Positions 53,169 through 54,099 of a stretch of DNA of 64,000 bases are shown piece by piece. The notes beneath the pieces are model-generated. The model searched no databases and was not told where the DNA came from. It was given only the letters and a program-made list of their open reading frames with translations. Made by a program: the position numbers and the translations under genes. Positions within the stretch are counted from its first letter, which is position 1. Every line of letters starts with the position of its first letter. This stretch comes from Eledone cirrhosa (lineage: Eukaryota): NCBI GenBank assembly GCA_964016885.1, contig OZ024759.1, positions 32,922,001-32,986,000 of the forward strand, read 5' to 3'.

Positions 53169-53182
53169 TGTATATATATATA

Positions 53183-53718
53183 TATTGTTATACTTTGGGA
53201 GGGTCATGTTGCCAATAAGAAACACACGCACCAGTTGCTTTCACTTCAATTTATTATAATACATTTATAAATTTCCGGTTGGTTGGTTGGTTCCACAACC
53301 AGATGGTTGTTTATATATTGTCAAAGTTCTTTCGTCACACATTCTGTGACCTCTTCAGTGACTGGGGATTCTTTTCTTTGTTTTTTGTGCCTCTTTGTGT
53401 CACACACAGAAACAAGATGGCGTTGGACAGAACAAAGGAGAGGCACAAAAAACAAAGAAAAGAATCCCCAGTCACTGAAGAGGTTACAGAATGTGTGACG
53501 AAATATTTTGACAATATATAAACAACGATCTGGTTGTGGAACCAACCAACCAACCGGAAATTTATAAATTCCTAAATTTATAAATTTATTATAATAAAAT
53601 GAAAGCAACTGGTGCGTGTGTTTCTTATTGGCAACATGACCCTCCCAAAGTATAACAATATCGGTTTCAACACACGTTTTCAGATAAAGAATCTTGCTAA
53701 ACAAATTCAGAAACTAAA
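53183..53718. mobile_element. Family B head-to-head fold-back (~210-220 bp arms, ~58-nt tail) with two outward-facing hammerheads
   Basis: 53183-53394 is an inverted copy of 53439-53660; ATG at 53636 reads [26 protein letters not shown] into (TA)n. Confidence 0.88.
53320..53362 (-). ncRNA. Intact-looking minimal type I hammerhead (family B)
   Basis: GTCA-CTGAAGA-G-GTCACA-gaatg-TGTGAC-GAAA-GAAC-TT-TGAC; perfect 4-bp stem I and 6-bp stem II; degenerate partner on + at 53471-53512. Confidence 0.82.
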
Positions 53719-53729
53719 TATATATATAT

Positions 53730-53798
<69 letters not shown>

Positions 53799-53804
53799 TA
53801 TATG

Positions 53805-53946
<142 letters not shown>

Positions 53947-54060
53947 TAAGAGGAATTCCAACTTTGTCTGATTTACTCGTTTTATTTACAATCCTTTAAA
54001 ATATATATAATGGTATTATAATGAAATAGTATGATAGAATATTAAATTCTAAGTGTTAAT

Positions 54061-54099
54061 TGAACAAGTACTTTCATGCTTTCGCAATCTTCAGGTTCA
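54061..54099 (-). ncRNA. Minimal type I hammerhead (P6, minus copy)
   Basis: Exact reverse complement of 54163-54201. Confidence 0.8.

Follow-up and report, generated by a model that had tools for sequence, protein, structure and literature searches.

A Penelope-type minimal hammerhead motif with a non-palindromic stem III centre in the genome of Eledone cirrhosa

The 64,000-nt stretch of Eledone cirrhosa DNA that we analysed (the window) carries two copies of a hammerhead motif that is almost certainly, by descent, a Penelope minimal hammerhead. The motif type has already been published and the motif is ordinary for its class; judged by its letters, the non-palindromic AA centre of its stem III insert is the sole departure from that class. 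The genome holds more than 30,000 hammerhead copies in two Penelope-like families, A and B, in which the hammerhead is a motif of the terminal repeat (pLTR) of elements with RT/GIY-YIG frames.

The window copies and the class of the motif

Both window motifs lie on the minus strand, and direct reading returned them letter for letter as initially annotated (Table 1). A pattern common to A and B matched twice in the window and never in 100 shuffles. The A copy has a weak stem I with a C-U mismatch. The B copy belongs to a head-to-head pair that spans 53182-53661 and is embedded in (TA)n, the arms aligning with each other at 85.8% over 500 columns. An ATG at 53636-53638 in the right arm opens the first 26 codons of the element frame (window frame 53603-53971), and the N-terminus it encodes is identical to that of a full-length copy, L097. 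When the whole window element was folded, the long hairpin that formed buried the motif, whichever strand was used (-341.6 and -346.3); the 53320-53362 copy is predicted to be a truncated passenger whose motif would be buried by read-through of both arms. In Rfam, no hammerhead model was among the 30 matches to 53170-53680 (E up to 10), and no hammerhead family among the best 150 of 782 matches to the whole window; the matches were microRNA-like hairpins only, none at the gathering score.

Table 1 Positions of the motif copies, their parts and related features. Positions are those of the window unless prefixed with G000, the genome to which the window belongs.
Feature	Position	Strand	Remark
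Family B minimal type-I hammerhead	53320..53362	-	Sequence, pattern match, fold energies
B stem I	53362-53359 with 53323-53320	-	4 bp
B core CUGAAGA	53358-53352	-	Extra G at 53351
B stem II	within 53320..53362	-	6 bp
B GAAA	53333-53330	-
B stem III insert GAAC	53329-53326	-
B U16.1	53325	-
B U17	53324	-	Predicted cut between 53324 and 53323
Left arm of the head-to-head pair, short 5'-truncated family B pLTR	53182..53400	-	Carries the B hammerhead; (TA)n end
Right arm, second B pLTR copy plus "tail", then (TA)n	53401..53714	+
AAGATGGCG motif	53414..53422	+	About 60 nt upstream of the right-arm hammerhead; common to A and B
Decayed right-arm hammerhead	53471..53512	+	Stem III insert altered and shortened by one base; a single change in stem II
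Family A minimal hammerhead	12528..12569	-	Extra U at 12558; stem II 6 bp; insert GAAC; U17 at 12532
Family A short pLTR insertion in (TA)n	12323..12699		Main copy on the minus strand
Inverted 70-nt copy of the A insertion's own 3' end	12630-12699
Third B pLTR copy	20406..20666	+	Hammerhead at 20475-20517; G15.2 changed to U; one stem II mismatch
Young A arrays	G000:C1:14380000-14396999; G000:C1:307336000-307350999; G000:C7:28549000-28565999
Candidate cut-RNA copies, rare	L269/L270 (G000:C2:183710473-183710538); G000:C6:22018018-22018077

The constraint on the motif was assessed in 13 hand-picked, related representatives. The core C3-U4-G5-A6-N7-G8-A9 and G12-A13-A14 is invariant in 13 of 13, as are the A15.1-U16.1 pair and a base other than G at position 17; 15.2/16.2 stays G-C or G-U, and the motif has an extra unpaired nucleotide between 9 and 10.1 as well as G10.1-C11.1. 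The variable positions (7, the extra base, loop 2, loop 3 and 17) are ones that the consensus leaves free. Stem I is paired in 84.6% of cells (4 bp in B, two sure pairs in A) and stem II in 100%. Covariation had been claimed for stem II, and two of its six pairs do change on both sides (C-G/U-A and A-U/G-C), one relative carrying a G-U intermediate. The covariation score of the 13 related rows exceeded those of all 500 shuffles; however, because the rows are related and both changes fall on the family A branch, this amounts to two events rather than a significance test. The predicted CUU triplet gained support from the constancy of U16.1 and U1.1, with U or A at position 17, and a register in which the second U would serve as U16.1 was rejected, since the A17 subfamilies are unable to form it. 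The proposal of a selected hammerhead likewise held, the core, the stem II pairing and the UH site being kept across families whose endonuclease DNA is 30-33% apart.

The extra core nucleotide, which the initial annotation had offered as a novelty, turned out to be a consensus trait of Penelope minimal hammerheads, in which Cervera and De la Pena found it conserved in 2014 (PMC4209133). In the accessible part of that paper, 54 of 56 aligned motifs (counted by hand) have the extra base, with the consensus CUGANGAH; G at this position, as carried by B, is rare there, occurring in one of the 56, from Nasonia. The same source reports CUU triplets in Philodina, Chrysemys and Oikopleura, and covarying hammerhead families within single genomes. 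The Eledone motif shares with the published motifs the type-I pLTR layout, CUGANGA plus the extra nucleotide, G10.1-C11.1, a long stem II, a short stem I, a tiny stem III, NUU triplets and an occurrence, within one genome, as several covarying families whose solo or opposite-strand copies number in the thousands; a single base separates it from the Oikopleura motif, GAAA-GAUC-U-U (PMC4209133). In contrast to them, its stem III insert is not self-complementary (AA, with GA and AG derivatives), and a two-purine centre is present in none of the 56 aligned motifs. The motif also resembles the Drosophila virilis type, which has a 2-nt palindromic helix III insertion, in having a stem III of 2 bp around a 2-nt centre, a stem II of 6 bp, a 5' extra base and, in family A, a stem I of 2 bp, but the Drosophila centre is a palindromic AU, matched in Eledone only by the youngest A form, AGAUUU with G-U (PMC4209133).

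Penelope minimal hammerheads are defined by a palindromic 15.2-16.2 plus loop 3. In the Eledone motif, 15.2-16.2 pairs and the AA centre does not, for which reason we file the motif as a variant; a palindrome is formed, via G-U pairs, only in the young A subfamily (AGAUUU). The initial description of the centre as non-palindromic and at odds with the published rule was thus correct, but AA is one state in a series and not a fixed one. A literature search covering work other than the Lunse et al. variants paper found no non-palindromic and no cephalopod Penelope hammerhead, and a purine-purine centre goes unmentioned in the accessible parts of 10.64898/2026.07.22.740005, PMC6765202 and PMC7229834.

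Host elements and variants of stem III across the genome

We searched the window's own genome (G000, 3.0 Gb). A same-strand RT/GIY-YIG frame lies upstream in 115 of the 232 copies with 950 nt of flank. In the reverse test, with loci picked by RT alone, the motif was in place in 26/30 B and 26/30 A loci; G15.2 is changed in one of these 26 B loci, so that it is kept in 25/30 B and 26/30 A. The full-length frame, 1,228 aa long in B and 1,210 aa long in A, is flanked by same-strand hammerheads 4.04-4.15 kb apart, and tandem elements, in which two such hammerheads are 4.0-4.15 kb apart, form arrays of up to four. The hammerhead is found about 210-250 nt past the stop and 115-190 nt ahead of the start of the RT/GIY-YIG frame.

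The element proteins contain DKSG, YVDD, a CX4CxxC linker and YIGET. The linker between RT and endonuclease (CX2-5CxxC) reads CTNRKCIIC in A and CIDKKCITC in B and points to the Neptune/Nematis type, an assignment made by motifs and by the descriptions of those clades. Scans of the full-length proteins against Pfam and PDB gave no match; fragments matched RVT_1 at E 0.007, below the curated cut-off, and GIY-YIG at 22.5 bits against a cut-off of 22.6. Neighbour clusters in the atlas included RT and GIY-YIG families, at 0.96-0.97. Only 2 of 120 listed homologues bear a name, and the nearest named protein among them is an Octopus vulgaris entry, at 69%. Eight public runs were listed, all as assembled contigs, with two RNA runs at shares of 0.10 and 0.07.

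As in the available descriptions of Neptune and Nematis (PMC8557442), the Eledone elements have a C-terminal GIY-YIG, a CX4CxxC linker, DKSG, (TA)n targets and partial tandems with an inverted 5'-truncated copy and a tail; they differ in their long frame (~1,220 aa) with an asparagine-rich insert. In the copies L097 (1922-5641, -) and L240 (73-3702, +), a long asparagine/histidine/threonine-rich stretch before the RT accounts for the frame length of ~1,220 aa. The anole Poseidon element PAc, as far as it is described in the accessible part of PMC11167929, shares a pLTR hammerhead near the start codon, an internal RT start, an optional tail and AT-rich targets, and its main template is uncut RNA. 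PAc belongs to the Poseidon clade and is cut inside the reading frame, whereas the Eledone motif lies upstream of the ATG; unlike PAc, the Eledone protein has the CX2-5CxxC linker (PMC11167929).

Stem III is variable across these copies. A looser pattern ending in GAAAGAACTTTG matched 8,502 + 8,550 = 17,052 times in the genome, compared with 5 matches for the reversed control, and a further 15,593 copies have A at position 17; by eye, the first 100 rows of the latter comprise 35 B-GAAC, 26 B-GGAC and 39 A-GAUU. The second loop base is altered in 1,283 copies (78 GAGC, 11 GAUC and 11 GACC among the first 100 by eye), and the first loop base, with U17, in 204 (39 GGAC, 33 GUAC and 28 GCAC by eye). 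The initial claim that GAAAGAACUUUG is invariant applies to the two window copies only, given the large subfamilies GGAC, GAGC and GAUU, and A17. GUAC and GAUC, both perfect palindromes, occur no more often than non-palindromic single mutants and founded no large subfamily. C and G at position 17 together account for 317 copies, a background level, with G in about 35 of the first 100 by eye; C17, which is expected to cut too, is as rare as G17. A C17 subfamily, hinted at by two loci, was rejected on this total and because the C17 rows form no clade. About half of some 34,000 copies bear the exact 12-mer and about two thirds have the AA centre, shares that are rough because the patterns vary slightly between counts and the rows were drawn from the first contigs. 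Descriptors requiring a palindromic stem III would overlook about two thirds of these copies.

The proteins of A and B are 61.5% identical. Their untranslated repeats align patchily: a block of 114 columns around the motif stands at 68%, and one of 33 columns at the start codon at 88%. In a tree of 49 of the 115 endonuclease rows, a third group, C, also GAAC, joins A; the tree does not fix the root of B, a GAUU row and a GGAC row each lie apart from their clade, and the endonuclease sample had no GAGC copy. Mean within-group distances in A are 0.029 for GAAC/U17 (n=4) and 0.018 for GAUU/A17 (n=34); those in B are 0.034 for GAAC/U17 (n=24), 0.022 for GAAC/A17 (n=26) and 0.021 for GGAC/A17 (n=14). 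Since the GAAC/U17 distances are the larger in both families, GAAC/U17 is likely the ancestral state of A and B, and the U17->A17 change likely occurred in parallel in both. By analogy with the published class only, we infer that the AA centre would have arisen from a palindrome. Sister families with palindromic loops were tried as an outgroup and set aside, no clean link to an RT having emerged. One family of putative kinship with A and B (L146, L163, L165 and L252) has a stem II that starts like that of B and pairs the "extra" G, and a palindromic UAUAUA insert.

The young A subfamily forms head-to-tail arrays with a period of 4.12-4.15 kb (L237-L242 and L235-L236). Several open 1,210-aa frames with identical search scores suggest that these arrays were recently active. 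Neither a protein search nor a pattern search found relative loci in metagenome contigs, and 17 pattern matches in viral contigs, none with more than 2 stem II pairs, were taken as chance.

5' ends of the copies

In both families, as seen in the window, L097 and L240, the core follows the AAGATGGCG motif at a distance of 50-59 nt. Of 125 family B copies examined, 66 have a 5' end within 600 nt upstream, and 22 of these 66 end 56-80 nt before the core, at and immediately upstream of AAGATGGCG; two of the 22 came from a query favouring that length. Only three A copies end at the matching place. AAGATGGCG, which we take to resemble a YY1 site, is likely near the transcription start and is a candidate start-site element.

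Copying of cut RNA would be expected to leave many 5' ends directly after position 17, but family B 5' ends show no pile-up at the scissile bond. Junctions, scored by eye, made up about 40 of 83 matches at the cut, the other cut matches being indel mutants, compared with about 15 of 40 at 10 nt upstream; 20 nt downstream of the cut there were 8 matches. After rough correction the 5'-end excess at the cut site is about 2-3-fold, and because a base matching position 17 is retained in 9 of the 10 junction events that the first 20 loci contain, this excess is not at the scissile bond. With 5' ends clustering 56-80 nt upstream and not at the cut, uncut RNA is likely the usual template. In two head-to-head pairs, both arms start at or one base before the predicted cut, with few AT units between them; these rare loci are candidate copies of cut RNA (Table 1).

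Pairing of stem III and possible modes of action

Within a single strand, a loop of 2 nt cannot close a stem of two base pairs, and Penelope minimal hammerheads have for this reason been proposed to work as dimers. Forced self-pairing of AGAACU was computed at +2.4 kcal/mol, the weakest dimer helix of the 16 centres, and this centre is nonetheless common to both families. Relative to AA, the dimer energy was computed to be lower for every centre that has spread (GA, -1.7; AG, -0.4; AU as AGAUUU (GAUU), +0.2 kcal/mol), and perfect palindromes reach -4.8 and -5.0 kcal/mol. Tandem G-A pairs adopt the sheared form. In the computation, U17 favours a shifted helix in which A13-A14 are sequestered by pairing (-1.2), and A17 abolishes it (+6.2). 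NUA triplets cut faster than NUU. The highest intrinsic rates are those of GUC and GUA, according to the available part of a review (PMC3138052), and Penelope minimal hammerheads are described as dimer-dependent, with low cleavage (PMC4209133).

We lean towards a slow, dimer-dependent hammerhead, probably protein-assisted, that would cut after CUU across an A-A/A-A mismatch. In tandem transcripts, or between two RNAs, the AGAACU strands would pair as A-U, G-C, A.A, A.A, C-G and U-A and so complete both active sites. Under such weak pairing, most RNA would stay uncut and be copied by RT starting inside the RNA near the ATG, which would explain why genomic copies retain an intact motif and why many begin at the presumed start. 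Younger subfamilies would then have strengthened the motif modestly, by GA or AU centres and A17. The tandem layout, the host RT/GIY-YIG, the constraint on the core, the background level of G17 against 15,593 A17 copies, the lower dimer energies of the centres that have spread and the published precedents (PMC4209133, PMC11167929) speak for the dimer model. Against it stand the AA centre, the weakest of 16, the misregistered helix favoured by U17, the lack of a 5'-end pile-up at the scissile bond, the rarity of C17, the sub-threshold Pfam match of the RT with the blank full-length scans, and the one-step palindromes GUAC and GAUC, which are unspread although the idea that a better dimer is better predicts their spread. 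AA->GA and AA->AG are transitions, so that mutation bias could be their cause. That a dimer hammerhead runs on a tandem purine-purine mismatch with its cutting tuned low, so that uncut RNA is reverse-transcribed, is a tentative idea that we regard as possible but doubtful.

De la Pena and Flores reportedly found in 2001 that G at the extra position lowers activity, which counts for a different view: the GAAC/U17 form may have little or no catalytic activity and persist because the pLTR RNA uses it for its structure or to bind protein, and only some derived subfamilies may cut. The weakest computed stem III, the competing misregistered helix, the 2-bp stem I in A and the lack of a 5'-end signal at the cut are all consistent with a dead form, as is the report that the anole hammerhead is dispensable for in vitro insertion, catalytic mutants being without effect (PMC11167929). 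The catalytic-core letters, however, are all kept across families 30-33% apart, with variation at consensus-free positions, and we judge a dead relic unlikely.

Cutting by a monomer, in which stem III would be no more than the A15.1-U16.1 pair, with GAAC as its loop and a protein holding it, appears improbable to us. Since a protein would hold stem III, the self-complementarity of the loop would be irrelevant, in keeping with a loop centre that drifts among AA, GA, AG and AU and with perfect palindromes that have not spread; the anole hammerhead, moreover, was cut only with protein present, in one pLTR-ORF junction RNA (PMC11167929). Yet 15.2/16.2 stays G-C/G-U, which cannot close a 2-nt loop in one molecule and fits a dimer, and each of the three centres that have spread makes the dimer helix more favourable by computation. 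A chance likeness inside a MITE-like inverted-repeat DNA element, as might be suggested by the TA-flanked palindrome around the window copy (seen in many MITEs) and by a B motif that alone folds no better than shuffles (z -1.19), is extremely improbable, being refuted by the tandem layout, the same-strand upstream frames and the RT-picked loci bearing the motif, and also at odds with the fit to the published consensus and with the tails and the inverted, 5'-truncated copies, both of which are characteristic of Penelope elements (PMC8557442).

The role of the hammerhead in Penelope elements has been called unclear (PMC8557442). The Eledone motif is of value for a dated set of natural variants, found in subfamilies that are young, run to thousands of copies and were apparently active in recent times; these variants could show how cleavage rate relates to the success of a copy. 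If a dimer hammerhead with low-tuned cutting does run on the purine-purine mismatch, the range of centres (AA, GA, AG and wobble-AU), the unspread palindromes and the parallel U17->A17 change would form a natural allelic series, and this would allow the cutting rate selected for in a Penelope element to be measured.

The window contains further motifs of other families. Four minimal-hammerhead-like motifs, at 31948 (+), 50325 (-), 33774 (+) and 45942 (-), have a palindromic or near-palindromic stem III, the 33774 type being the commonest among the matches listed. A short inverted pair at 32151-32275 consists of A-type 3' ends without a hammerhead. An inverted pair of another hammerhead-like family, with the C of CUGA at 54094 (-) and 54168 (+), lies 750 nt from the B motif and has a 5-bp stem I and a short stem II with a GAAA loop; its stem III is a perfect palindrome, A-GUAC-U, followed by U17, and provides a natural control for the GAAC form.
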